From a virus (taxonomy: Duplodnaviria > Caudoviricetes), in IMG/VR virus record IMGVR_UViG_3300028591_000084: a DNA stretch of 64,000 nt. The stretch is one strand, 5' to 3'. The notes under the pieces are model-generated. The model was not told where the DNA came from and searched no databases. It was given only the letters and a program-made list of their open reading frames with translations. The translations under genes were made by a program, and so were the position numbers. The first letter of the stretch is position 1; each line of letters starts with the position of its first letter. Positions 6,635 through 59,103 of the stretch are shown here, piece after piece.

Positions 6635-6728
6635 AAAAAATTAGAACTTACCATTATCGTTTCGTGTAATGGCAGGTTCTTTTTTTTTTATTCGGAGTAA
6701 AAAAGAAAAAGAGGATCTTAGTCCTCTC

Positions 6729-7322
6729 TTACCAAACAATACCTTCAGAAATCATTAAGAAATCTGAAAGTAGATCCAAACTTTTCTGTCCTACTCCTTT
6801 CTTTCTAGCAAAAAGGGCGCTAGAAGGATATTTAATTAGAAATTCTTGAATTGTAAAATTTTTACTTGCACTACCCCAATAAGACATTGCGGAAATCAAG
6901 CAGTTTCTTAACCTTCCTACTCCCCTTTGATCACCATAGAGTAGATTAATTTTATAGATCATTGAGTCGGGCCTTAGTTTTTCTACTACCTGTTGTTTAC
7001 CGACTCTTTCTCTAATATCCAGTCTCTTAAGTCCATCAGCCATTCTCAAAAGTCTGGCAATTCCGTAGGACAATCTAAAATTCTCTTTTTCTTCTAATAA
7101 TGGTGGTCTATGATTTATAAATCCCGGCACCTCGTCTGCCGCAAAATTAAGAGAAAGGACATAAGTATAAGTTCCTCCTCCATCTAAAGTAACATAAGTT
7201 CTGCCTTGATCCTTAAGTTCTACTATTCTCTTTTCCACATAATAGTAGGCCTCGTTAACTAATTCTTGAAGTTCGAGCGGTTTGAACCTTAATTTCTCAC
7301 CCTCCACTATAAACAGTTTCAT
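6729..7322 (-). CDS. protein with C-terminal RNA polymerase alpha-CTD-like domain
   Basis: GRLRNCL...TIQEFL...KGVGQKSLDLL resembles alpha-CTD VRSANCL...TIGDL...NLGKKSLTEI. Confidence 0.6.
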   Translation of the reverse strand: MKLFIVEGEKLRFKPLELQELVNEAYYYVEKRIVELKDQGRTYVTLDGGGTYTYVLSLNFAADEVPGFINHRPPLLEEKENFRLSYGIARLLRMADGLKRLDIRERVGKQQVVEKLRPDSMIYKINLLYGDQRGVGRLRNCLISAMSYWGSASKNFTIQEFLIKYPSSALFARKKGVGQKSLDLLSDFLMISEGIVW

Positions 7323-7846: not shown

Positions 7847-8221
7847 ATGAATAGTATTTTTGAAAGTACAGCGACTATTTTTTCGCTTATTAAGAAACCT
7901 GGAGTAGATAGTTATGAATTCTATTTCTTAGGTATGACAGAAGACAATAATAATGTCTTTTGGACTAGTGATTTGAACTTAGGTAAGAGGTTTCCAATTG
8001 GTGATGCTGAAAGTAATGACTTCTTTGCCGAAACTTTTTTGAAGGTTACTGATCCTGAATCTCCTATATATCAGGACCTAATAAAAAGGATCGAACCCCC
8101 TTATCGAGAGGATGCTGAAATCTATGTCGGTAAATTTAGATTACACCTTGATGTTCTTCCCGGCACTGTAGTTAGGAAGATAAAGAAAGGAAAACCTATC
8201 GACGTTGATCTCAAGAATTGA
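7847..8221 (+). CDS. hypothetical protein
   Basis: ORF with AAATCCTTACTATTGAT-ATG motif. Confidence 0.7.
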   Translation: MNSIFESTATIFSLIKKPGVDSYEFYFLGMTEDNNNVFWTSDLNLGKRFPIGDAESNDFFAETFLKVTDPESPIYQDLIKRIEPPYREDAEIYVGKFRLHLDVLPGTVVRKIKKGKPIDVDLKN

Positions 8222-8732
8222 GTGGTATTTGAGATCCCCCCCAATTCTTTAATAATGTAATAAGAAGATTATGCAAAAAAGATTCCTGTTATTAAACTGG
8301 AATTTCGGTTAGATTGTTTCCTCAGGGATAACATTACTAACCGGCATAATACTCTTATTAACCTGGAATTTATATTAGAGACACAATACAAATATTTACA
8401 GATAGATCTTCCTTCCCAAGTAGAAATATTTGGGAGATACTTAAGCTTTACGCGCAATAAATACGAGGACGGCTTAAGTATGAAGAACTATCTTTTGCTT
8501 ATAAAACATAAAAAGTAGTTTGGTAGGTCAATTAGATCTATTTAAACGAAACCACAGGCTGGTTAGGACCGTTATAAGTTCTGTAAAATGTTAGGCCTGG
8601 CATAATATTACTATTCTTATTTATATTTATTCGACCTAACATAACCAGTATAAAATAAGTATTAATCTACTAACTATCGCTGCATAGTGGTAGTTTTTCT
8701 TTTTTTTTATTTTATACCAAACAAATCATCTC

Positions 8733-8823
8733 AATTCCTTAATAATAGATAGTGCTAGCTAGTTATTTTAGTTATTTGAATATTTGGGAGGGAAATTGCT
8801 TGTGATAAGTAGTTTCCCTTTTT
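8733..8823 (+). ncRNA. candidate sRNA cassette A (promoter motif, U-rich segment, GUGAU-loop terminator)
   Basis: AATTCCTTAATAATAG, then about 40 nt without ORF, then AGGGAAATTGCTT-GTGAT-AAGTAGTTTCCCT and T run. Confidence 0.55.
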
Positions 8824-8846
8824 ACTTTGAAAATGAAATCCCTATC

Positions 8847-8929
8847 AAATCCTTACTAGTGAAGTAAATTTTTCGGTTGCTATTTCAAAAGGTAGTGGTC
8901 TGTGAAGATCGCTACTTTTCATTTTTTTT
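8847..8929 (+). ncRNA. candidate sRNA cassette B
   Basis: AAATCCTTACTAGTG, then about 25 nt, then GTAGTGGTCT-GTGA-AGATCGCTAC and T run. Confidence 0.55.
8892..8919 (+). repeat. 28-bp dispersed hairpin repeat GTAGTGGTCTGTGAAGATCGCTACTTTT; identical copies at 12411-12438 (-), 20939-20966 (+), 43714-43741 (+)
   Basis: Four exact copies read from the sequence; GUGA tetraloop terminator architecture. Confidence 0.9.
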
Positions 8930-8938
8930 ATTCCCCTC

Positions 8939-9027
8939 GAATCTTTATTAATATATATTAGTGGTTTTATTATTATAATTTCGTTAGAAGAGACCGTTCG
9001 TGATGAATAGTCTCTTTTTTCTTTTTT
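8939..9027 (+). ncRNA. candidate sRNA cassette C
   Basis: GAATCTTTATTAATA, then about 35 nt, then AGAGACCGTTC-GTGAT-GAATAGTCTCT and T run. Confidence 0.55.
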
Positions 9028-9141
9028 CAACCCGTTAAATCTTTAATATTGATATGAGTAATAAAACATATATTATAAGTAAGATTTGTATTGGTAATAT
9101 AATGCTCGGATTCAGGAGGTCCGGGCTATAATAAAAATAGT

Positions 9142-9366
9142 ATGGAAGAGATCAAGAAAGGATTGATTGTTGAATTTAAAGATAAGAGTCCTAATCCAAA
9201 AACAGGATTAAGTCACGAAAATGCTTATCAAGTTATCGGTACTTGCTTCATGAAAGATCCTACTAGTAGAGAGTGGTTACCGGCCGTAATCTATAAAGGG
9301 GGTGATGAAGTTTATGTTAGAGAACTTAATGAATTCATTGAAAAATTTCAAATTAGAACATCATGA
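9142..9366 (+). CDS. DUF1653-like small protein
   Basis: Y.VIG...VIY...VYVRELNEFIEKF pattern. Confidence 0.6.
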   Translation: MEEIKKGLIVEFKDKSPNPKTGLSHENAYQVIGTCFMKDPTSREWLPAVIYKGGDEVYVRELNEFIEKFQIRTS

Positions 9367-11057
9367 TTGGTCAATCTATTATTAACTTATTCGACGGTAT
9401 TATTAAAGGTAATGCACAATTAATTGTAGGCGATTATCAAAGAAGACCAGATTCGTGGCAGAGAATGCAACACAAGAGGCTCTTCGACGATATTATTCGA
9501 TCTTCTGAGAGAGCAGAACGAGGAGAACAGGCAGAGCATTATATCCAGACAGTAACCTTGTTTAGAGGTGAAGGTCGATTAGGGGATCCTTATCAATCAG
9601 CTTATATTGTTGATGGATTGCAGAGAACCACTAATATTTTTATTCTTTGCGCTGCTTTAAGAAATGCTATTCTTAATTCTCCAGAACTAATTAAAGAAGA
9701 CAAGTATAATGACTGTCAAAGAGATCTAAAGAGGCAATTTCTTATTAATTCTGAATCGGGAGAACGAAAATTAAAACTTTATCGTCAAAGTGATGATGAG
9801 ATATTAGATTTTATCGTTCAAAATGATAAGGAAAATCTTGAAAAACTTAAAGAGATTCCACTAATAAAGGTCTACCAATATTACTATAATAGAGCTAAAT
9901 TGGTTAAAAGATCAATCCCTAAGTATTATGAGAAGGGATTGAGAAACTTTACGTGGATTCTTGAAGAGTGTCAATCAGAAAGACAAGCAATAGAACTTTT
10001 CATTGATAAAAACGCTCTACAAAAAGGTACTACAAGCGGCGAAGTGATTCAAGCTAAATTTAGAAATGCTATTATGGATCACTTAACACCTGAAGAGTCT
10101 AAAGAAATAACAAAGCTAATAGATGAAGTAATTGAGTATGAGGAGCTTACGCTTAGTTCCTTTTTTACTGATTTTCTCTACTACAGCTATAATGAAAAGT
10201 ATTCAGATCAAACAACAAAAGAGGTTTATATGAACCTTCTTGACGATCCTGGCGTTGATTTAGTAAGAACTATAAAGAAATTATATTCCTATTATCTATT
10301 TGATAAAGCTTGGAAAGAGAAATCATTTAATCTCGAACCAGCTAAACATCTTCTGGAATCTACCTATACTAAACAATCCTTAAAGGATCTCTTTGTAGAT
10401 CTTTTCAGTGATAAATTTGATGGTAAGTTTGAACTAGGAATGCAGGACAAAGTTCTTATATATAAACTGTGTGAAGCCTATATTATAAGACGAGATGCTG
10501 TAGGTAGAACACAGCACGATAATAAAGTCCTGGCGAAAGTTCTTAGCACTGCGCTAACAGAAGATACTGATTCATATAAAAACCCAGTCGATAAGGTTAG
10601 AAATTTTCTATATAAAAGACCAGGAAAAGAACTGTCCGTCGTCTCTGATGAAGAACTAAGAAAAGAAGGATTAAAGAGTGATGTCTATAAGAATAATGCC
10701 ATGAGAAGACTGACCCTGTGCATACTTCAAAGAATCAATGATAGATTCAGAGTCATCGGGGAACCAAGAATCTATGGGGCTGATAGCATCTCCCTTGATC
10801 ATATTATGTGTCAAAAAAATAATGACAAGAATCCACTCCTGAATATGATCGGAAATCTAACAATTCTTACATCATCCGCCAACTCCCAAATTAGAAATGC
10901 TAAGTTTGAGGAGAAAAGACATCAACTTTATGACCAATCTATATTTAAAATTAATTGGTATTTTAAAGAAAATGAAATTGAACACTGGACTGATGATGAA
11001 ATTCTGAGGAGAAATGATTATATTATTGACCAAGTTATTGATCTCTGGCCAATCTAA
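9363..11057 (+). CDS. gmrSD: GmrSD-like (DUF262 + DUF1524) type IV restriction endonuclease
   Basis: YQR..SW and IVDGLQRTT (DGQQR-like) in the N-terminus; LDHIMCQ...IGNLTIL...NS HNH-type C-terminus. Confidence 0.8.
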   Translation: MIGQSIINLFDGIIKGNAQLIVGDYQRRPDSWQRMQHKRLFDDIIRSSERAERGEQAEHYIQTVTLFRGEGRLGDPYQSAYIVDGLQRTTNIFILCAALRNAILNSPELIKEDKYNDCQRDLKRQFLINSESGERKLKLYRQSDDEILDFIVQNDKENLEKLKEIPLIKVYQYYYNRAKLVKRSIPKYYEKGLRNFTWILEECQSERQAIELFIDKNALQKGTTSGEVIQAKFRNAIMDHLTPEESKEITKLIDEVIEYEELTLSSFFTDFLYYSYNEKYSDQTTKEVYMNLLDDPGVDLVRTIKKLYSYYLFDKAWKEKSFNLEPAKHLLESTYTKQSLKDLFVDLFSDKFDGKFELGMQDKVLIYKLCEAYIIRRDAVGRTQHDNKVLAKVLSTALTEDTDSYKNPVDKVRNFLYKRPGKELSVVSDEELRKEGLKSDVYKNNAMRRLTLCILQRINDRFRVIGEPRIYGADSISLDHIMCQKNNDKNPLLNMIGNLTILTSSANSQIRNAKFEEKRHQLYDQSIFKINWYFKENEIEHWTDDEILRRNDYIIDQVIDLWPI

Positions 11058-11103
11058 ATAAAAAAAAGAGAGTAGTTTAAACGCTACCCTCTTTAATTTT
11101 TTT

Positions 11104-11524: not shown

Positions 11525-11713
11525 AAAAATTTTAAAGCGCACCAACTCCCATTGCTACACTCTTGCTATCACCTAAGAGCTCCACAATTCCATTAATGCG
11601 CTTTTAGACCAACAACTTACTTCTCTTAGCCTACCGATTCTTGCTATTACCTAAGAACCTAATATGCTTAAAAGATCTTTATTATTGATCTCTCTTACTA
11701 TTCTTATTTATTC
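11525..11713 (-). ncRNA. candidate structured ncRNA with two TCTT-AGGTRATAGC-AAGA hairpins
   Basis: 18-nt repeat at 11561-11578 and 11639-11656; upstream AAAGCCTTATATATG promoter motif; closing stem AAAGCGCA/TGCGCTTT and T run. Confidence 0.5.
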
Positions 11714-11792
11714 ATATATAAGGCTTTAAGACGATTTTAAAGGTAGTTTTTGGCCTATTTTTAACCAAAATTTAAAGAAAAATAAAGAAAAA

Positions 11793-12185
11793 TCAAGGTA
11801 AATCCTTGATTTTCCCCAAAAACTCCTTATCAAAGGCGGACGTTTCGGAAATCGCCCAGATCTTACTTGGAGTTTTTATGTATACTTCTGTGAAATGCTC
11901 GATTTCTCGAGCTGCATCACATACTTTACTTATCTCAACATTTCCGTAAATGAAATGCTTAGATAATGTATCGTGTGCGCTACAAACGCCCTCCAACCAC
12001 TCCTTCTCCCGAAAGAATGGTATTTTTTGGTCCTTACCTGCTTTCTCACAAGCGGCCCTTAGTTTCTCTACTCGGGGCAATCCCTGTTTTATTATCAGGA
12101 TGATTTTTATTACCCCAAGGGACTCGGCCCTCTCCCAAATGGAGATAACCGACTCTCTAAATCTTAATTCTTTTGTTTTTTCCAT
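11793..12185 (-). CDS. hypothetical protein, probably early
   Basis: ORF downstream of CTCCTCAAAGCCTTATATATG motif at 12272-12292. Confidence 0.65.
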   Translation of the reverse strand: MEKTKELRFRESVISIWERAESLGVIKIILIIKQGLPRVEKLRAACEKAGKDQKIPFFREKEWLEGVCSAHDTLSKHFIYGNVEISKVCDAAREIEHFTEVYIKTPSKIWAISETSAFDKEFLGKIKDLP

Positions 12186-12297
12186 AACTTGTTGTTGTTA
12201 GGCTCCTTTTTCTCATTCCTCAGGATCGGAACCTACTAATCCCTTGGAAGATAACTTACTACGTTTCAGTTACATATATAAGGCTTTGAGGAGAAAG

Positions 12298-12379
12298 AAG
12301 AAAGAGAGCTATTCATCACGAACGGCTCCCTCTAAAGTAATAAATAAAAACAAATAGGTATTTATATATGTAAGGTTTT
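12298..12379 (-). ncRNA. candidate sRNA cassette D
   Basis: AAAACCTTACATATA, then about 30 nt U-rich, then AGGGAGCCGTTC-GTGAT-GAATAGCTCTCT hairpin (same core as cassette C). Confidence 0.55.
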
Positions 12380-12482
12380 AATGGTTTAATACAGAGTCCG
12401 GTTAAAAATGAAAAGTAGCGATCTTCACAGACCACTACCTTTTGAGAAGGTCCAGGATTTTACTCCCAGACCCAACCAAGTA

Positions 12483-20220: not shown

Positions 20221-20901
20221 ATGGGATTTAGAGATTTTTATAAAGCAGAACATCCTTATGGTATGTCTGCTCTTGATGATTATGCGAAGAAGAGTGTGAT
20301 TACTCCTTATATCACAAGAGAGAGTAAAGATCGCATGGTTCAAGTTGATGTATTTTCTGAGCTGATGGATAATAGAATTATGTTTCTCGGAGATGAGATT
20401 AATTCAGATGTTTGTTGTATTGCCCTCAGTCAGCTTGTATATCTTCACGCAGTAAATCCAACCGCCCCAATAACAGTTTATATCATGAGCCCTGGGGGTG
20501 AAGTATACTCAGGGATGGCACTTTATGATACTATGGAGCTTATTAAAAAAGATTGTGTAATTAATACAACTTGCCTTGGGCTGGCCGCTAGTATGGGCAG
20601 TATATTAATGCAAGGAGGTACACGAGGATATAGAAGCGCATTACCACATAGCAGAATTATGGTTCACTCTGCTAGTACCGGGGCAGAACGCATAACTTAT
20701 CCTGACCTTAGAATTATGGCAGATGAAACAGAACAGCTGAATAACGAATTGCTTAGAATTCTTAGTGAATCTAGTGGTAAACCTTTTGAGGAAGTAGAGA
20801 AAGATTGTCAAAGGGATTGCTGGGTTAGGGCAGATGATGCGCTACCTGGAAAATATGGAGAATTTGGATTGATAGATAAAATTATAGATAAATTAAATTG
20901 A
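20221..20901 (+). CDS. clpP: ATP-dependent Clp protease proteolytic subunit
   Basis: DVFSELMDNRIMFLG, YIMSPGG, GLAASMGS (Ser), RIMVH (His), RD (Asp), GLIDKI; ATG at 20221 preferred over TTG at 20197. Confidence 0.93.
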   Translation: MGFRDFYKAEHPYGMSALDDYAKKSVITPYITRESKDRMVQVDVFSELMDNRIMFLGDEINSDVCCIALSQLVYLHAVNPTAPITVYIMSPGGEVYSGMALYDTMELIKKDCVINTTCLGLAASMGSILMQGGTRGYRSALPHSRIMVHSASTGAERITYPDLRIMADETEQLNNELLRILSESSGKPFEEVEKDCQRDCWVRADDALPGKYGEFGLIDKIIDKLN

Positions 20902-21025
20902 TTTTACATTTGTTTTAGCTTTACTTATTGTGAGGAAAGTAGTGGTCTGTGAAGATCGCTACTTTTCATTTTTAACCGGACTCTGTATTAGGGTCTTTGA
21001 GTTTCTAGTGGGACGAAAGTTCGGC

Positions 21026-27318: not shown

Positions 27319-27436
27319 TCAAAACCGGTCAATATCTTATTAGTAGAGAACTTAGTTTTGATTAACAGACAATTTGAATGGAGAATTAGACAAGTTCTGA
27401 TTCTCCATCTCTTTTTAACAATTTAAAAAATTTAAA

Positions 27437-28078
27437 ATGATTAAAAATTTATTTGTTTTGGTTTGCAGCTTGGCCATTATTTCTTGTGCTGGCTGTAAGG
27501 GTAATCAAGAATCGCAAGAGCAGGAAACTCAGGCCACAGCAGTTGCCCCTCTTACTGTAGAGCAGGCTATTTCTATGGACCGTGAGTTTATGTATCTTAA
27601 CCATGCTAAGGATTATCGTTGGTTTGAGACTGATCTTGTTTTGAATGATTGGTTTGATTCTGAGGGTTGTGATGGTTCTGTTGAATCTGTACTCAACGTT
27701 TTTCAGACAGTTATTCAATGCAGTGAAACTACCTACGATACCATGGTTTATAAGATTACCCACGAAAAGGGTGAGTCATTGGTTGATTCAGTTCATGGAT
27801 TCTATGTCGAAGCTGTTATTCTGAATGAGGAAGACATTAAACTGACTTATAAAGAGGCCTATGAGGTTACCACTAAGGTTAATCTCCCCAAGCCTCATTC
27901 CAAGCATTGCACTCTCTACAAACCCGTTGGCCCCGTTGATTGTAATCCCCAGTATGTGTTTGGTAATACCAAGCAACAGATTTGGGTTGATGCAGTGACA
28001 GGCGAAGCTACTGATTCAAATCCCGCATTTAAAGGTTATGAGTCTAGTTTTGGTAAGCCTCTGGGTGAGTGGCCCTAA
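27437..28078 (+). CDS. putative lipoprotein with PepSY-like C-terminus
   Basis: Lipoprotein-type signal MIKNLFVLVCSLAIISCAGC; IWVDAVTGE. Confidence 0.6.
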   Translation: MIKNLFVLVCSLAIISCAGCKGNQESQEQETQATAVAPLTVEQAISMDREFMYLNHAKDYRWFETDLVLNDWFDSEGCDGSVESVLNVFQTVIQCSETTYDTMVYKITHEKGESLVDSVHGFYVEAVILNEEDIKLTYKEAYEVTTKVNLPKPHSKHCTLYKPVGPVDCNPQYVFGNTKQQIWVDAVTGEATDSNPAFKGYESSFGKPLGEWP

Positions 28079-32504: not shown

Positions 32505-32956
32505 TTAATACTGACATCATAATAAAGATTGAAAGACAGAGAGGCCACAAATATGATTGGCCAGAACAAACCAGAGAAATGATTAAGAGATTGAATGAAC
32601 TGAAACTGGGATTTCCAGGACTAGGTAATGATCACTTATCACTAGTACCCTTTGAACAAATAAAACAAGGGGACTGGTTTATCTGGGATGAGTATATTGA
32701 GTCTAAAAAAAGAGGTGATTCTGCCCCTATGATGCTTAATTGGATTGAGCCAGGGAAAGCAAGAATTGAAGGTATTGGTTGTGGGCTTGACTTGAAACGA
32801 GACCCAGATAGAATTAGATATAGGTGGATGGATATAATTGATCTCCCTGAGTTAAAGGAGGGTCAGTTAGTGGTAAGGGTAGATGTCAGGCCTACATTAA
32901 ATGGTGGACCTGGATATTACTACTTTTATAAGTCATATAGAGACTTTAGATATTGA
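32501..32956 (+). CDS. hypothetical protein
   Basis: ATGA overlap; terminator follows. Confidence 0.7.
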   Translation: MINTDIIIKIERQRGHKYDWPEQTREMIKRLNELKLGFPGLGNDHLSLVPFEQIKQGDWFIWDEYIESKKRGDSAPMMLNWIEPGKARIEGIGCGLDLKRDPDRIRYRWMDIIDLPELKEGQLVVRVDVRPTLNGGPGYYYFYKSYRDFRY

Positions 32957-32993
32957 GAGGACTTAGTTCCTCTTTTTTCATTTTCTTATTATT

Positions 32994-42438: not shown

Positions 42439-43062
42439 ATGATAGAATATAAATTTGGTTGTATTTTTGAGACTTCTTGTCAAACTATCACAAACACGGT
42501 CAACACAGTAGGAGTTATGGGTGCAGGATTAGCTCTAGTTTTTAAAGCTCTGTATCCAAAAATGTTTAAAATCTATAAAGAATATTGTGACCGTGGACAG
42601 TTTAGACCAGGAATGTTATGGATTTACAAGGGATCAGAGAGATGGCCACAAGTACTAAATTTTCCAACTAAATTACATTGGAAGAACCCTAGTACTATTC
42701 CTATTATTGAGGATGGACTAAAAAAATTAGTGGAAACCTATAAAGAAAAGAGTATAACTTCATTAGCTATACCGGTTTTAGGAACTAATAATGGGAGATT
42801 AGATCCCAGAGTTGTTGTTCCTGTTATGGAACATTATCTTAGAAGACTCAATATACCAGTAGAAATCTGGACTCATAAAAGTGATTCAGTTAACCCTATT
42901 TGGGAAGAACTTAGAAATTCATGTGTTGCTGGGAGATCTAGATTTGAAGATCTTGTTCTTAGTAGTAATGGGTTTGTTGATTTGGCTAAATCTTGTGCAA
43001 CTCTTGGGAGGAAAGATGATTTTGGAGAAGAGATTAATAAACTAATAAAAATAGAAAAATGA
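42439..43062 (+). CDS. DarG-like macrodomain ADP-ribosyl hydrolase
   Basis: NTVNTVGVMGAGLA..FK..YP, NFPTKLHW, SLAIP.LG.NNG.L. Confidence 0.88.
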   Translation: MIEYKFGCIFETSCQTITNTVNTVGVMGAGLALVFKALYPKMFKIYKEYCDRGQFRPGMLWIYKGSERWPQVLNFPTKLHWKNPSTIPIIEDGLKKLVETYKEKSITSLAIPVLGTNNGRLDPRVVVPVMEHYLRRLNIPVEIWTHKSDSVNPIWEELRNSCVAGRSRFEDLVLSSNGFVDLAKSCATLGRKDDFGEEINKLIKIEK

Positions 43063-43673
43063 TAGAGTTTAAAGAAGGTTGTTTATTTTCAACTAATTGC
43101 CAGACTATAGTTAATACTGTTAATACTGTAGGAGTTATGGGTACTGGATTAGCTCTAGTTTTTAAGGCCATGTTTCCAAAGATGTTTCAAGAATATAGGT
43201 ATTACTGTAGATCTGAAATGTTTGGAGTTGGTAAATTGTGGCTATACAAAAATACAAACAGGTGGCAGGTTTTGAATTTTCCAACTAAAACGCATTGGAA
43301 AAATTATTCAGAACTTCCGATTATAGAAGCATCTCTCTATAATCTCTTGGCAACTTATAAAGATCGAGGAATTACATCATTAGCCATCCCTATGTTGGGG
43401 TGTCAAAAGGGAGGCCTAAGATCTAAACAAGTATTTCCGTTGATGAAAAAATATCTTGACCAGCTTGATATACCGGTTGAGCTCTGGACTAATAATAAGA
43501 AGCACGTTAATCCTATTTGGGCTGAATTATACGCAGCCAGCAGAGACGCTGATAGTCCCTTTAAAAGATTAGTGCTTAGTTGCAGAGACTTTGAAGACTT
43601 AAGTAAGAAAGTTGGTGATAGAAAAGACGTTTTTGGAGTTGAAGTTAATCGAATAATTAGATTTGAGCCTTAA
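43059..43673 (+). CDS. DarG-like macrodomain ADP-ribosyl hydrolase (tandem paralogue)
   Basis: NTVNTVGVMGTGLA, NFPTKTHW, SLAIPMLGCQKGGL. Confidence 0.88.
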   Translation: MIEFKEGCLFSTNCQTIVNTVNTVGVMGTGLALVFKAMFPKMFQEYRYYCRSEMFGVGKLWLYKNTNRWQVLNFPTKTHWKNYSELPIIEASLYNLLATYKDRGITSLAIPMLGCQKGGLRSKQVFPLMKKYLDQLDIPVELWTNNKKHVNPIWAELYAASRDADSPFKRLVLSCRDFEDLSKKVGDRKDVFGVEVNRIIRFEP

Positions 43674-43777
43674 ATGCATACGTTGTTAAATTCTTCCATT
43701 TTTATTAAGAAAGGTAGTGGTCTGTGAAGATCGCTACTTTTTTTGTTTTATATTAAAATTTTAATAGAAGATAGGTA

Positions 43778-44963: not shown

Positions 44964-45517
44964 TAGTATATTTTATCACTTAGAATAATATAAATATCCA
45001 TTCTATCTTTATCAGACAATTTCTCATTGAACCAATCCAGCTCTTCTCCGTTGTGTCTGATAATATAATATTCATCACCCTTTCTACCAAAACCTTTGCC
45101 CCATTTACCTAGATCAACATCTTTATAGGATCCTGGCTTAAAATATTTGGGTAATTCTTTCATTACGTCTTTAACTAAACCAGTCATAGCTTTGTTATAA
45201 GACTCTACTATGTTTTTTAAGGTTTTGCCAGACTGCTTGCTTTCATACTCATCAACAAACATTAAGATCTTTTGAATATCGCTAATTAAAGCTTCTTCGC
45301 CAGTCCAAGGATAAGTATGGCCTTTAAGAACAGTTACGATTTCCCCTGTACCCGCTATTCTACCTATTAGATCACAGACTCCCTCAATAGTATAGGGGAA
45401 GAACTGTCCTGGCGCTATAGTCTTGCAAATTATTCTATCAACCGTCACCAATAAGTTCTTAATTCCAATATCCTTATTCTCCTGGATATGTCTGTATTTT
45501 ATACTAAAGTCCCTCAT
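44963..45517 (-). CDS. hypothetical protein
   Basis: Likely start MRDFSIK overlapping the upstream gene end. Confidence 0.6.
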   Translation of the reverse strand: MRDFSIKYRHIQENKDIGIKNLLVTVDRIICKTIAPGQFFPYTIEGVCDLIGRIAGTGEIVTVLKGHTYPWTGEEALISDIQKILMFVDEYESKQSGKTLKNIVESYNKAMTGLVKDVMKELPKYFKPGSYKDVDLGKWGKGFGRKGDEYYIIRHNGEELDWFNEKLSDKDRMDIYIILSDKIY

Positions 45518-45971
45518 AAACTCTAATAACGTTATTTTTAAAGTCAAATAAAACTGAACCAAAATTACAAAGAATATCAGAACCAATCATAGTACTATCT
45601 CCGATAAAGATTCTTGTTTTATCTATAACACATCCTGCAAAATTAAGGGATGGTGCATAGACGGAATCGATTAGATGGCCTTGAGTTTGTAGAAAGTCAA
45701 ACTCTACCTTAGATACCATTAACCCGCCTAAAGAATCAAAGCTAATTCCGGATTTAATTGGAATTCCGCCAACTAATATTACGACCTTATGATCCTTTGA
45801 TAGTCTGGTAGAAGTCGTTGATACTTTAGTTGGGATAGTCTCTTTCTTCTCAGTTGGAATAGGTAATGGCTTATTGAATAAACCTTTATTGTCGCTATAA
45901 AAAACGAATCCTAATCCAATAATAATAAAACTAACTCCAAACGCAAATAAAAACTTACTAATTATATTCAT
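45504..45971 (-). CDS. membrane-anchored protein, possibly degenerate retropepsin-like aspartic protease fold
   Basis: N-terminal TM; C-terminal MIGSDIL...VLFDFKNNVI resembles the ILGxDxL...IDF motif; no canonical DTG. Confidence 0.4.
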   Translation of the reverse strand: MNIISKFLFAFGVSFIIIGLGFVFYSDNKGLFNKPLPIPTEKKETIPTKVSTTSTRLSKDHKVVILVGGIPIKSGISFDSLGGLMVSKVEFDFLQTQGHLIDSVYAPSLNFAGCVIDKTRIFIGDSTMIGSDILCNFGSVLFDFKNNVIRVYEGL

Positions 45972-46053
45972 ATTCTCAACTATAAGGAAAAGAAAGGGGA
46001 AAGTAATCCTCTCAGACAACTTCCCCTTATAATAACTCGGCATGAGAATAGTT

Positions 46054-46139
46054 AAAAAGGATCGGCCTTCACAGGCAAATCCTCAAAGACTCCAAGGCTA
46101 ACGCTATAGCCTTTACATACTTCACAATAGTAAGGAAAT
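46054..46139 (-). ncRNA. candidate sRNA cassette E
   Basis: ATTTCCTTACTATTGTG, then about 40 nt, then AGGATTTGCCT-GTGA-AGGCCGATCCT and T run. Confidence 0.45.
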
Positions 46140-46205
46140 AAGGGGTTTGTTTTTATTAGAATAATATTTTAGCATTCTCACCCTCCTCTTTTCCTTATTC
46201 CTGAT

Positions 46206-47099: not shown

Positions 47100-47680
47100 T
47101 GGATAATCCGAGATATAAAGGAATTCTTATTGATAGGAATAACGTGCCAATTCCTGGAACTGACTTTTTTGGTTGGAAGTCTAGATCCTTAGCAGTAACG
47201 GTTGTAATTTTAAGTAAAACTAGATCAGGATTGTATGAAGCCCTCGTTGAAAAGCGCGGCCCTGGTTGTCCTGATTACGTAGGATCCTGGTGTTGTCCTT
47301 GTGGTTATTTAGGCTGGGATGAAACACTCAAGGAAGCAGCAGTAAGGGAGGTGTATGAAGAAACTGGTCTAGAGCTCAAAGAAGAGGAGCTATCATTACT
47401 TGGAATTGATGATGATCCAGAAGCGAATAGACAAAACGTTACAGTTAGGTTTTATTGTGAAATAGATGAGAGGAGAATTTTTCCAGTCATTAATCACGCC
47501 TTGTATAAGAAATCAGACAGGGGAGGTGAAGAAGATGAAGTTGACGAATTAACTCTTGTTCCATTATTTTACGTTAGAGTCAACGAGAATAGTTTTGCTT
47601 TTGGCCATAACAAAATTATTGAAGAGGCTTTTTTGAAGATAAAAAATGAAGAAACAATAAAAAAGAAGGTAGGGAATTAA
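47096..47680 (+). CDS. Nudix hydrolase (ADP-ribose pyrophosphatase-like)
   Basis: Nudix box GYLGWDETLKEAAVREVYEETGL; FAFGH tail. Confidence 0.9.
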   Translation: MMDNPRYKGILIDRNNVPIPGTDFFGWKSRSLAVTVVILSKTRSGLYEALVEKRGPGCPDYVGSWCCPCGYLGWDETLKEAAVREVYEETGLELKEEELSLLGIDDDPEANRQNVTVRFYCEIDERRIFPVINHALYKKSDRGGEEDEVDELTLVPLFYVRVNENSFAFGHNKIIEEAFLKIKNEETIKKKVGN

Positions 47681-47752
47681 TCCTTACCTTTATTTTTTTT
47701 TATTTAGAGTAAAAAAAGAGACTACTTAATCTAGTAATCTCTTGGCATGTTT

Positions 47753-53820: not shown

Positions 53821-54191
53821 TACAAGAAGGAAAGTATTTATTAGCATTTGTACCAATGATTGTTAAGCCCTATATTATTTTGAAATCTTCAGGTGATATG
53901 GAAAGGGATGCAAAGAGATTACTGAATTATATAAACAGAAATCTAGATATATATGAAGATCGGATCCTCGCAATGTTTCAAGACCAAAAAAAGGGATTTA
54001 CTAGAGAAGAAATATCCCTAATTGGTGGAAAACGGGGAGAAGACGATTGGAAGAAAAGAGCTATTGGTTTCTTTAATGTTGATTTGAAAAAAACTGATAA
54101 AGGATTTGAAGGTATTATAACAAAAGATGATATATATCTTTTTAGCGTCGAAGGTACTGATGCTGACTTTGTATTACTAGAAGAGGACTAA
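53817..54191 (+). CDS. hypothetical protein
   Basis: ATGA overlap; terminator follows. Confidence 0.65.
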   Translation: MIQEGKYLLAFVPMIVKPYIILKSSGDMERDAKRLLNYINRNLDIYEDRILAMFQDQKKGFTREEISLIGGKRGEDDWKKRAIGFFNVDLKKTDKGFEGIITKDDIYLFSVEGTDADFVLLEED

Positions 54192-54251
54192 GATCCTCTT
54201 TTTTCTTTTTTACTCACCTAATAACCTTACTATTAGTATAAAATTAATAAA

Positions 54252-58538: not shown

Positions 58539-59077
58539 TATATAATAGCGGTTTAGAATCAGTTATTGAAGCTATCTATTTGGACGAGAAACTTGTACCG
58601 AAGATAGGAAAAGCAAATATTGAAGTTAATCCCAGTGAGGCCTCTTATGCTGTTGGGAAAACTATTATCTTAACCAATAATAAGTGTACGAATGTTGATA
58701 TCTTAATTAGAAATGGAAATAAAGTTATTTCTAGAGTAAAAGGATATGATGATGACGTTCAGTTTCAGCCTTATATCATTCGCCCTAATTTCAATATTTT
58801 CTGGAATGGCGAAGTTTATGAGTGTCCCAGAGAATTTAGTGGAGACCTTGATGATATTATGGAGTGGTTAGGGGCCCAAGATAAATTTCCAGTTAATTAT
58901 GACGAAAAGGTGTCTTTATGTTTCCCCAAGGTAACAGGAATATTAAAGGATGTCTTAGTTGGGCCAGAAGGAAATCTCACTTCATTAGGGTGGCTATTAC
59001 ATCAGGTGGGTGTTAATGTTGGGAAAACTTTTCTCGATATGGACTTATTAAAAACAAAAAAAATAATAAAAAGGTAG
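58535..59077 (+). CDS. hypothetical protein
   Basis: ATGA overlap; ends in repeated terminator. Confidence 0.65.
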   Translation: MIYNSGLESVIEAIYLDEKLVPKIGKANIEVNPSEASYAVGKTIILTNNKCTNVDILIRNGNKVISRVKGYDDDVQFQPYIIRPNFNIFWNGEVYECPREFSGDLDDIMEWLGAQDKFPVNYDEKVSLCFPKVTGILKDVLVGPEGNLTSLGWLLHQVGVNVGKTFLDMDLLKTKKIIKR

Positions 59078-59103
59078 GGAATTAATCCTTACCTTTATTT
59101 TTT

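Follow-up and report, generated by a model that had tools for sequence, protein, structure and literature searches.

An array of gene-less promoter-hairpin units in a large ruminant-gut phage: possible stacked junctions with one candidate small RNA

The window analysed here, a 64,000-nucleotide stretch of IMG/VR virus record IMGVR_UViG_3300028591_000084, is part of a 311,995-bp contig derived from a large (~312-kb) phage of ruminant guts, and encodes phage-type functions which include an intein-bearing NrdD, a topoisomerase II, a ClpB-like AAA+ protein and a GmrSD nuclease. Near-identical DNA was found in sheep, goat and bovine gut runs (15 studies, 6 of them RNA libraries), and the data suggest the Bacteroidota as the host group. 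The largest gene-free gap of the window (8222-9141, 920 nt) holds the array described below, an accessory region of the phage located between a structured RNA gene of ~450 nt and the operon encoding a 74-aa protein and GmrSD. A blastn search of positions 8000-10000 against 50,697 phage records produced 0 matches, viral contigs searched with the 124-aa protein and the ClpB-like protein revealed no related locus, and a tRNA/tmRNA scan returned nothing.

The array consists of three consecutive units, each made of a promoter block, a short U-rich segment and a hairpin followed by a T-run, which occupy positions 8733-9027 exactly where a previous sequence-only reading had placed them (Table 1). That reading had described the units as gene-less and their 5' segments as U-rich and unstructured, and both descriptions were borne out: none of the units can hold an ATG-initiated ORF of more than 8 codons, conserved micro-ORFs are excluded by indels that break the frame between strains, and the segments, 24-38 nt long, are predicted to be unpaired and contain 55% U, compared to 32% T in the window. 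The hairpin loops are GUGA or GUGAU in all three units, as reported, and the distance from the CYTTA of the promoter to the hairpin end ranges from 68 to 81 nt in five units. The single units which had been located at 12298-12379(-), 46054-46139(-) and 27331-27416 also exist. A 61-aa frame on the minus strand (8845-9030) was considered and rejected, as it corresponds to no gene on record and is broken by indels.

Table 1. Positions of the array elements, of the neighbouring features and of related units in the window.
Feature	Positions	Strand	Remarks
P0 promoter block (CCCCCCC..TTCTTTAATAATG)	8237..8262	+	14.4 bits; drives the non-coding stretch upstream of the array
Structured conserved non-coding RNA, ~450 nt	8261..8710	+	left neighbour of the array; ends in hairpin T0 (8672-8695) and a T-run
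P1, unit 1 promoter block	8727..8757	+	13.8 bits; 3' box degenerate, no ATG; varies between strains
Unit 1 5' segment	8752..8789	+	U-rich
T1, hairpin A and T-run	8788..8823	+	hairpin 8788-8818, loop GUGAU; invariant in L004 and X3
P2, unit 2 promoter block	8840..8870	+	17.6 bits; invariant in the L004 and X3 strains
Unit 2 5' segment	8864..8887	+	conserved between strains
T2, hairpin B and T-run	8886..8930	+	hairpin 8888-8919, loop GUGA, 14 pairs including 3 G-U
P3, unit 3 promoter block	8933..8964	+	18.4 bits
Unit 3 5' segment	8956..8987	+	56% U; evolves at or above the neutral rate
T3, hairpin C and T-run	8986..9027	+	hairpin 8986-9018, loop GUGAU
P4, promoter of the 74-aa/GmrSD operon	9031..9056	+	full strength, 27.1 bits
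Inverted paralogue of T2-P3-segment-T3	12298..12445	-	hairpin B, promoter, U-rich segment, hairpin C'
Single gene-less unit	27325..27414	+	non-GUGA loop
Single gene-less unit	46045..46150	-	21.6-bit promoter, GUGA hairpin

The promoter of the array is the standard gene promoter of the phage, CCC-N3-5-AWTCYTTA-N-TATTGAT, which recurs through the window and abuts, at a fixed position, the true ATG of at least 10 genes with long ORFs. That these ATGs are true starts is supported by the metallophosphatase motif GDIHG at residues 11-15 of one product, by a macrodomain beginning at residue 2 of another, and by several products containing no other Met. Since the ATG of the motif is a real start codon at these genes, the corresponding mRNAs must be leaderless or nearly leaderless. 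A weight matrix trained on 16 gene-proximal copies assigned 19.5-28.2 bits to the gene promoters, the 99.9th percentile of the window being 1.5 bits. P1, P2 and P3 (CYTTA at 8737, 8851 and 8943, respectively) each scored below every gene promoter because their TATTGAT(ATG) part is degenerate and the ATG has been lost; the 3' box of P2 reads TAGTGAAGTA, as in the unit at 46135(-). Within a span of 800 nt, one strand carries 5 matches that reach 13.8 bits or more, compared to 23 in the whole 128-kb double-strand space.

RNA-derived contigs provided evidence for initiation just behind the array and for termination at its first hairpin. In four assemblies, representing at least 3 samples, such contigs start at 9061, 9062, 9063 and 9063, just past P4, one of them with the Illumina adapter directly attached, and run through the 74-aa and GmrSD genes, while DNA contigs extend further left. 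These results indicated that the block is a promoter and that transcription starts at its 3' end or immediately behind it. As several 5' nucleotides are usually lost in standard cDNA libraries, the boundary at 9061-9063 is compatible with a transcription start at the P4 motif ATG (9054). This same ATG opens a 25-codon frame, 9054-9131(+), ending 10 nt before the 74-aa gene, which may be a leaderless upstream ORF with the RNA 5' boundary inside it. At the left side, a 959-nt contig from RNA run X2 (SRR7634034) covers 7870-8827 with 0 mismatches and stops four bases past the T-run of the first hairpin, where DNA contigs run on, indicating that T1 terminates in vivo. RNA depth in that run was 47 before the array, 1.7 in the bin after 8827 and 234 after the array. 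As for P1-P3, we infer that they fire. No discrete small RNA was detected among the RNA contigs, and the unique parts of units 2 and 3 had no RNA-contig cover in runs X2 and X5; such libraries lose RNAs shorter than 100 nt, among them any RNA of 60 nt, so that this missing cover is no evidence either way. For the individually promoted RNAs of 60-80 nt previously proposed, a recognisable phage promoter and an intrinsic terminator are present in every unit, but the size of these RNAs would only be ~55-70 nt. Further downstream, L002 (with adapter) and L003, both RNA-derived contigs, stop at 11008, which is 49 nt short of the GmrSD stop codon and may be a site of RNA processing or the 3' end of an RNA.

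The left neighbour of the array, the 8261-8710 RNA, is covered by RNA contigs and folds with a z-score of -5.9 relative to shuffled sequences. It has accumulated 16 events where 40 were expected under neutrality, about a third of the neutral rate, and all 7 substituted stem positions keep their pair, with 0 of 138 pairs broken. Five of these stem changes lead to G-U (plus strand) and one is a double change from C-G to U-A, whereas a 26-nt insertion falls in a loop. No match to this RNA was found in Rfam. A protein-coding role for 8261-8710 was ruled out by frame-breaking indels, and a programmed frameshift at the A6 run (8275), which would give a protein of ~85 aa, was discarded as the L004 variant needs the opposite shift. 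We therefore regard the 8261-8710 RNA as a candidate for a new phage RNA, outside the known families.

Fold z-scores of hairpins A, B and C were -4.1, -4.4 and -2.6, respectively, and a simple terminator scanner flagged only the middle one. Hairpin A is present as a single copy in the window, whereas hairpin C has one paralogue, 12301-12333(-), with compensatory changes in the outer stem. Hairpin B (8886-8926) has a 100% identical copy at 12404-12445(-), behind the ClpB-like gene (a ClpB/ClpA-type AAA+ protein, which had been misnamed clpP), and near-identical copies at 20940-20971, behind gene 20221-20901, and at 43706-43745, behind gene 43059-43673, and is therefore the terminator of three protein genes. 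The notion of hairpins shared between units was correct in that B and C have copies elsewhere, but the three hairpins of the array are three different sequences. Outside the window, hairpin B used as an exact pattern gave 0 matches in viral, genome and metagenome contigs, a 29-mer of hairpin A gave 0 matches in metagenome contigs, and an 18-mer of it gave 8 matches in 185,579 genomes, which is at or below chance, the Prevotellaceae match not being a hairpin. Two terminator families with other loops are likewise present as three near-identical copies each behind unrelated genes, one at 2191-2215, 47666-47690 and 59070-59096, and the other at 6704-6733(-), 32955-32974 and 54179-54202. Identical repeats are thus a general habit of this genome and not the mark of a special handle, and they point to concerted evolution or to the spread of terminator modules. 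The constant 3' handle that had been attributed to the array does not stand up to these data, given three differing array hairpins, one of which ends protein genes, and non-GUGA families that are equally identical.

The 5' segments had been described as unique, which did not apply to two of the three. The tail of unit 2 aligns with 25-30 nt of the 3' UTRs of two genes, the ClpB-like gene and gene 43059-43673, where this stretch precedes hairpin B; in view of this homology, the unit reads as a promoter, GTG-AAG-TAA and then a terminator module, namely a 3'-UTR-like flank and hairpin B. Unit 3, in turn, is paralogous to the 12.3-kb unit, and the whole block from hairpin B through P3 and the tail to hairpin C (8885-9020) has an 81%-identical inverted paralogue at 12445-12300. 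These inverted blocks (~150 bp) bracket a 3.3-kb module composed of two convergent operons, 74-aa/GmrSD and 130-aa gene/HSP20, which meet at a bidirectional terminator (11065-11094), and the inverted repeat may delimit an accessory module that is mobile or invertible. Another gene-less unit, ~190 nt long and with two hairpins and an 11.9-bit promoter variant (..AAAGCCTTATATATG), lies at 11534-11723(-), between the 130-aa gene and HSP20.

For strain comparisons we used lineages L004-6 (93% protein identity in the 124-aa gene) and the goat contig L016 from run X3, and took the neutral rate from four flanking genes (dS about 0.10). Strains at this distance keep all three units, and among them we found neither a strain without one of the units nor filled slots, that is, ORFs between the same promoters and terminators. 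Positions 8790-8918, which comprise hairpin A, the spacer, P2, the unit 2 tail and hairpin B, have undergone 1 event versus 12.9 expected (P = 3e-5), with 0 changes over 8749-8918 in strain X3, and the T1-P2 spacer plus the unit 2 tail show 0 changes versus 4 expected (P = 0.018). Conservation was also seen in hairpin C with its tail (8988-9027; 0 events versus 4.0 expected), in P4 (9028-9056; 0 versus 2.9) and in the operon leader (9057-9141; 1 versus 8.5). Segment 8709-8789, containing the T0 tail, P1 and the start of unit 1, accumulated 13 events versus 8.1 expected, including two 4-nt deletions, which in the L004 variant affect the 5' segment of unit 1, a segment that carries a 5-nt insertion in run X6. 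The unit 3 tail has 8 substitutions (5 events if counted with indels) versus 2.3 expected, in addition to a 5-nt insertion in the 3' box of P3 found in goat and other strains, and the paralogous unit at 12.3 kb is an equal hot spot of change, the indels in the unit 1, unit 3 and 12.3-kb segments being of 4-5 nt. Relative to the neutral rate, unit 2 is thus the only one constrained beyond its hairpin; in units 1 and 3 the terminators are kept while the promoter 3' box and the tail drift. It should be considered that the conservation of 8790-8918 could also stem from a recent recombination tract or from a role at the DNA level. The change in the tails of units 1, 3 and 12.3 kb is as compatible with absent constraint as with the seed turnover anticipated for relatives.

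Two further observations were made on the variation of this region. The 130-aa gene, 11793-12185(-), shows a dS of 0.42 between the window and the goat strain, compared to 0.10 for its neighbours, with jumps in divergence at ~11795 (terminator 11785-11817) and ~12095 (within the gene), so it represents a recombinant (mosaic) allele. In addition, a 24.8-kb JGI contig (L007) joins window position ~8380 directly to ~24530 (L007:1560-1800) through a junction with 5-nt microhomology, which lies 3 nt before the ATG of a 205-aa gene and not in a cassette. The 16 kb that carry the array, GmrSD, HSP20 and the ClpB-like gene are missing from this contig, which must be a deletion variant or else a chimera of assembly or cDNA. 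The Logan assembly of RNA run X2 (SRR7634034) contains the full-length form, and X2 and L007 may belong to the same sampling campaign.

The reading which we tentatively favour, with somewhat less than even confidence, is that the array is a stack of terminator-promoter junctions, similar to the PeSL cassettes of other phages, that makes RNAs of 55-70 nt, unit 2 being one credible small RNA in the style of the Bacteroides RNA FopS. According to this proposal, the locus would comprise four stacked junction cassettes, T0/P1, T1/P2, T2/P3 and T3/P4. The 3' end of the standard promoter normally provides the ATG of a gene that is leaderless or almost so; P1-P3 have lost this ATG and the next terminator would be met 25-40 nt later, so that each unit could only yield a non-coding RNA of ~55-70 nt, formed by a U-rich 5' tail and the terminator hairpin. 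The cassettes would stop transcription arriving from the left four times over before a clean restart at P4 for the GmrSD module, whose other end would be guarded by the inverted hairpin B-promoter-hairpin C block. Unit 2, together with hairpin A and the preceding spacer, would be under purifying selection over its whole length, as expected for a small RNA that is maintained, is built like FopS/GibS and pairs by means of its U-rich tail, and units 1 and 3 would be spare junctions in which the promoter 3' box and the tail can drift freely. Consequently, a working small regulatory RNA is to be expected from one unit of the array at most. We infer that the unit 2 RNA would act in trans; the target search, which covered 64 of the 312 kb of the phage, found no target for it. 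A further difficulty is that plain recombination of the PeSL type between two flanking cassettes removes an entire unit, and alone leaves units with the promoter next to the terminator unexplained. The uniform size of the units and the GUGA bias detailed below nevertheless hint at a selected class of RNAs broader than unit 2.

This hint leads to the first alternative, a true array of sibling trans-acting antisense small RNAs, single copies included, whose U-rich seeds would pair with the A-rich start regions of mRNAs from host or phage and whose GUGA-capped hairpin would serve as terminator and perhaps as a handle for a protein. We hold this reading to be doubtful, in spite of the number of features that agree with it. 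Architecture and size equal those of FopS (PMC11697453), the tails are rich in U and the unit length is uniform. GUGA(U) loops are enriched in gene-less units, since 5/8 GUGA(U) terminators have a gene-less location versus 1/14 of the others (Fisher p = 0.011, the copies not being fully independent). The Bacteroides small-RNA models GibS, BTnc060 and BTnc231 come up repeatedly as weak Rfam matches owing to the hairpins; moreover, the array adjoins another RNA gene, is retained in all strains at dS 0.10 and keeps its hairpins fixed while its tails vary. However, the covariance models themselves did not recognise the units. No significant Rfam match was obtained for the array, FopS (RF04319) was absent from a cmscan of 8660-9145 at E <= 10 and also from 12270-12470 and 46030-46170, and GibS (RF04182) reached only 20.6 bits (E = 1.5) and 15.5 bits, at the hairpin apex only, compared to a gathering score of 115. 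FopS carries a conserved R1/R1' seed in its single-stranded 5' end (PMC11697453). In the phage 5' tails this seed (UUUUUCAU-type) is absent, UUUUCAU being found only in the 3' tail after hairpin B.

Nor did complementarity support variable antisense seeds, as had been postulated. For six seeds, duplex energies with the window's 78 start regions did not stand out from those of shuffled controls (empirical p = 0.17-1.0); the lowest p for seeds against neighbouring RNAs and leaders, 0.015 among 16 tests, fails correction for multiple testing; and blastn-short of the segments against the window produced antisense matches at chance level only. The best match of unit 3, 11 nt to the start of gene 28743, likewise does not rise above chance and has disappeared in the goat strain. 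In addition, an array of siblings is difficult to reconcile with three differing hairpins of which B is a generic gene terminator, with promoters that score below gene promoters in the weight matrix, and with tails in units 1, 3 and 12.3 kb that accumulate changes and indels as DNA without constraint would. The data do not support a guide-like family with a constant handle. We give an equally doubtful standing to the wider view of 8222-9141 as a phage RNA island combining the new ~450-nt structured RNA with an array of individually promoted small RNAs of FopS style whose seeds change fast. If this were true, a jumbo phage of the rumen would reprogramme the translation of host or rival-phage genes beside its GmrSD anti-phage nuclease.

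Slightly less probable, and in our opinion unlikely, is that the units are purely structural leftovers, either emptied gene slots or duplicated junctions, with no RNA function in any of them, kept only since stacked terminators insulate the GmrSD module. The loss of the ATG and the degenerate promoter 3' box in all three units, the composition of unit 2 as promoter, GTG-AAG-TAA, 3'-UTR-like flank and hairpin B, the drift of units 1 and 3 at the neutral rate or faster, and the identical terminators behind genes, suggestive of cassette spread or gene conversion, are all in line with such an origin, for which the PeSL junctions of T4-type phages offer a precedent (PMC2839356, PMC4122927). Yet the spacer and tail of unit 2 evolve well below the neutral rate, more slowly than a terminator or a promoter would need by itself; random decay would be expected to produce neither such a narrow size class nor the GUGA bias; and 0 relatives have a filled slot.

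Attenuation or antitermination, in which the units would be leader-terminators giving a short terminated RNA unless a phage factor permits read-through, as at lambda pR'-tR', seemed improbable for the array. It fits better the single units at 46135(-) and 27335(+): genes 45504-46043 and 27437-28078 directly follow them, begin within 10-30 nt and have no promoter block of their own, which suggests leader-terminator control (read-through or antitermination) of these two genes. In the array, by contrast, a new promoter follows every terminator, the downstream operon is driven by P4, a strong promoter with a sharp RNA 5' boundary that no read-through contig crosses from upstream, and three redundant serial leaders would have no obvious use. 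Lastly, that the units encode micro-peptides is barely credible. In its favour are a GTG-started 17-codon frame in unit 1, ending in the hairpin loop, and a TTG-started 27-codon frame at 8784-8867. Against it, 4-nt and 5-nt inter-strain indels break every candidate frame in units 1 and 3, unit 2 offers Met-Lys-stop only, and the 8784-8867 frame begins within the terminator hairpin, where the RNA ends.

Returning to stacked junctions with one maintained small RNA, its two components differ in their implications. Few phage-encoded small RNAs are known, and in the literature searched they are treated as single genes. If unit 2, along with similar units in other places of this phage and in other jumbo phages of the rumen, is a real small RNA, such phages would be equipped with whole sets of host-style riboregulators under their own promoters. 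If they are stacked junctions only, the PeSL principle of self-contained, insulated expression units that ease gene shuffling extends from T4-type coliphages to phages of a very different host group, here with a different, leaderless or nearly leaderless, promoter type. Either way, the array provides a defined promoter and efficient terminators as possible genetic tools for rumen bacteria, of which the Bacteroidota are the suggested hosts.

Three known systems are informative for comparison. In the 6S RNA leader of lambda pR'-tR', which is subject to Q antitermination, a promoter is followed at a short distance by an intrinsic terminator and a short RNA is made. A similar arrangement is seen in the single units at 46135(-) and 27335(+), which lie in front of genes; the array differs in having a fresh promoter after each terminator, and no antiterminator or qut-like site was identified. 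The second are the FopS and GibS small RNAs of Bacteroides, which join a single-stranded 5' seed to a terminator (PMC11697453, PMC7366714). FopS is also marked by binding of the RRM protein RbpB and by its repression of susC-type start regions. Like these RNAs of Bacteroides thetaiotaomicron, the phage units stand alone, combine a promoter of their own with a U-rich, single-stranded 5' part and a Rho-independent terminator, and show the FopS plan of one unpaired 5' stretch, one terminator hairpin and no ORF. Their size is similar to that of FopS (~60-80 nt), the hairpin 1 consensus of GibS equals the apical 15 nt of hairpin A, and the BTnc060 terminator has the same GUGA loop cap. They depart from FopS and GibS in their phage-type promoter, in the lack of a covariance-model match or R1 seed, and in tails that are not conserved except in unit 2. 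The closest parallel to the array as a whole is offered by the PeSL (promoter-early stem-loop) cassettes of T4-type phages (Arbiol et al. 2010, PMC2839356; Comeau et al. 2014, PMC4122927), which are also associated with mini-circles arising when cassettes recombine. The phage junctions differ from PeSLs in being stacked without intervening ORFs, in drawing on several unrelated hairpin families, in a promoter that is not sigma-70-like and has no Shine-Dalgarno sequence, and in showing no gain or loss of units among strains; the mosaic allele with one of its breakpoints at a terminator may be a point in common. As in PeSLs, however, a terminating stem-loop is followed by a strong phage promoter that abuts the next start codon, and this composite recurs through the genome in many near-identical copies between small accessory genes and in a variable region, here beside GmrSD.
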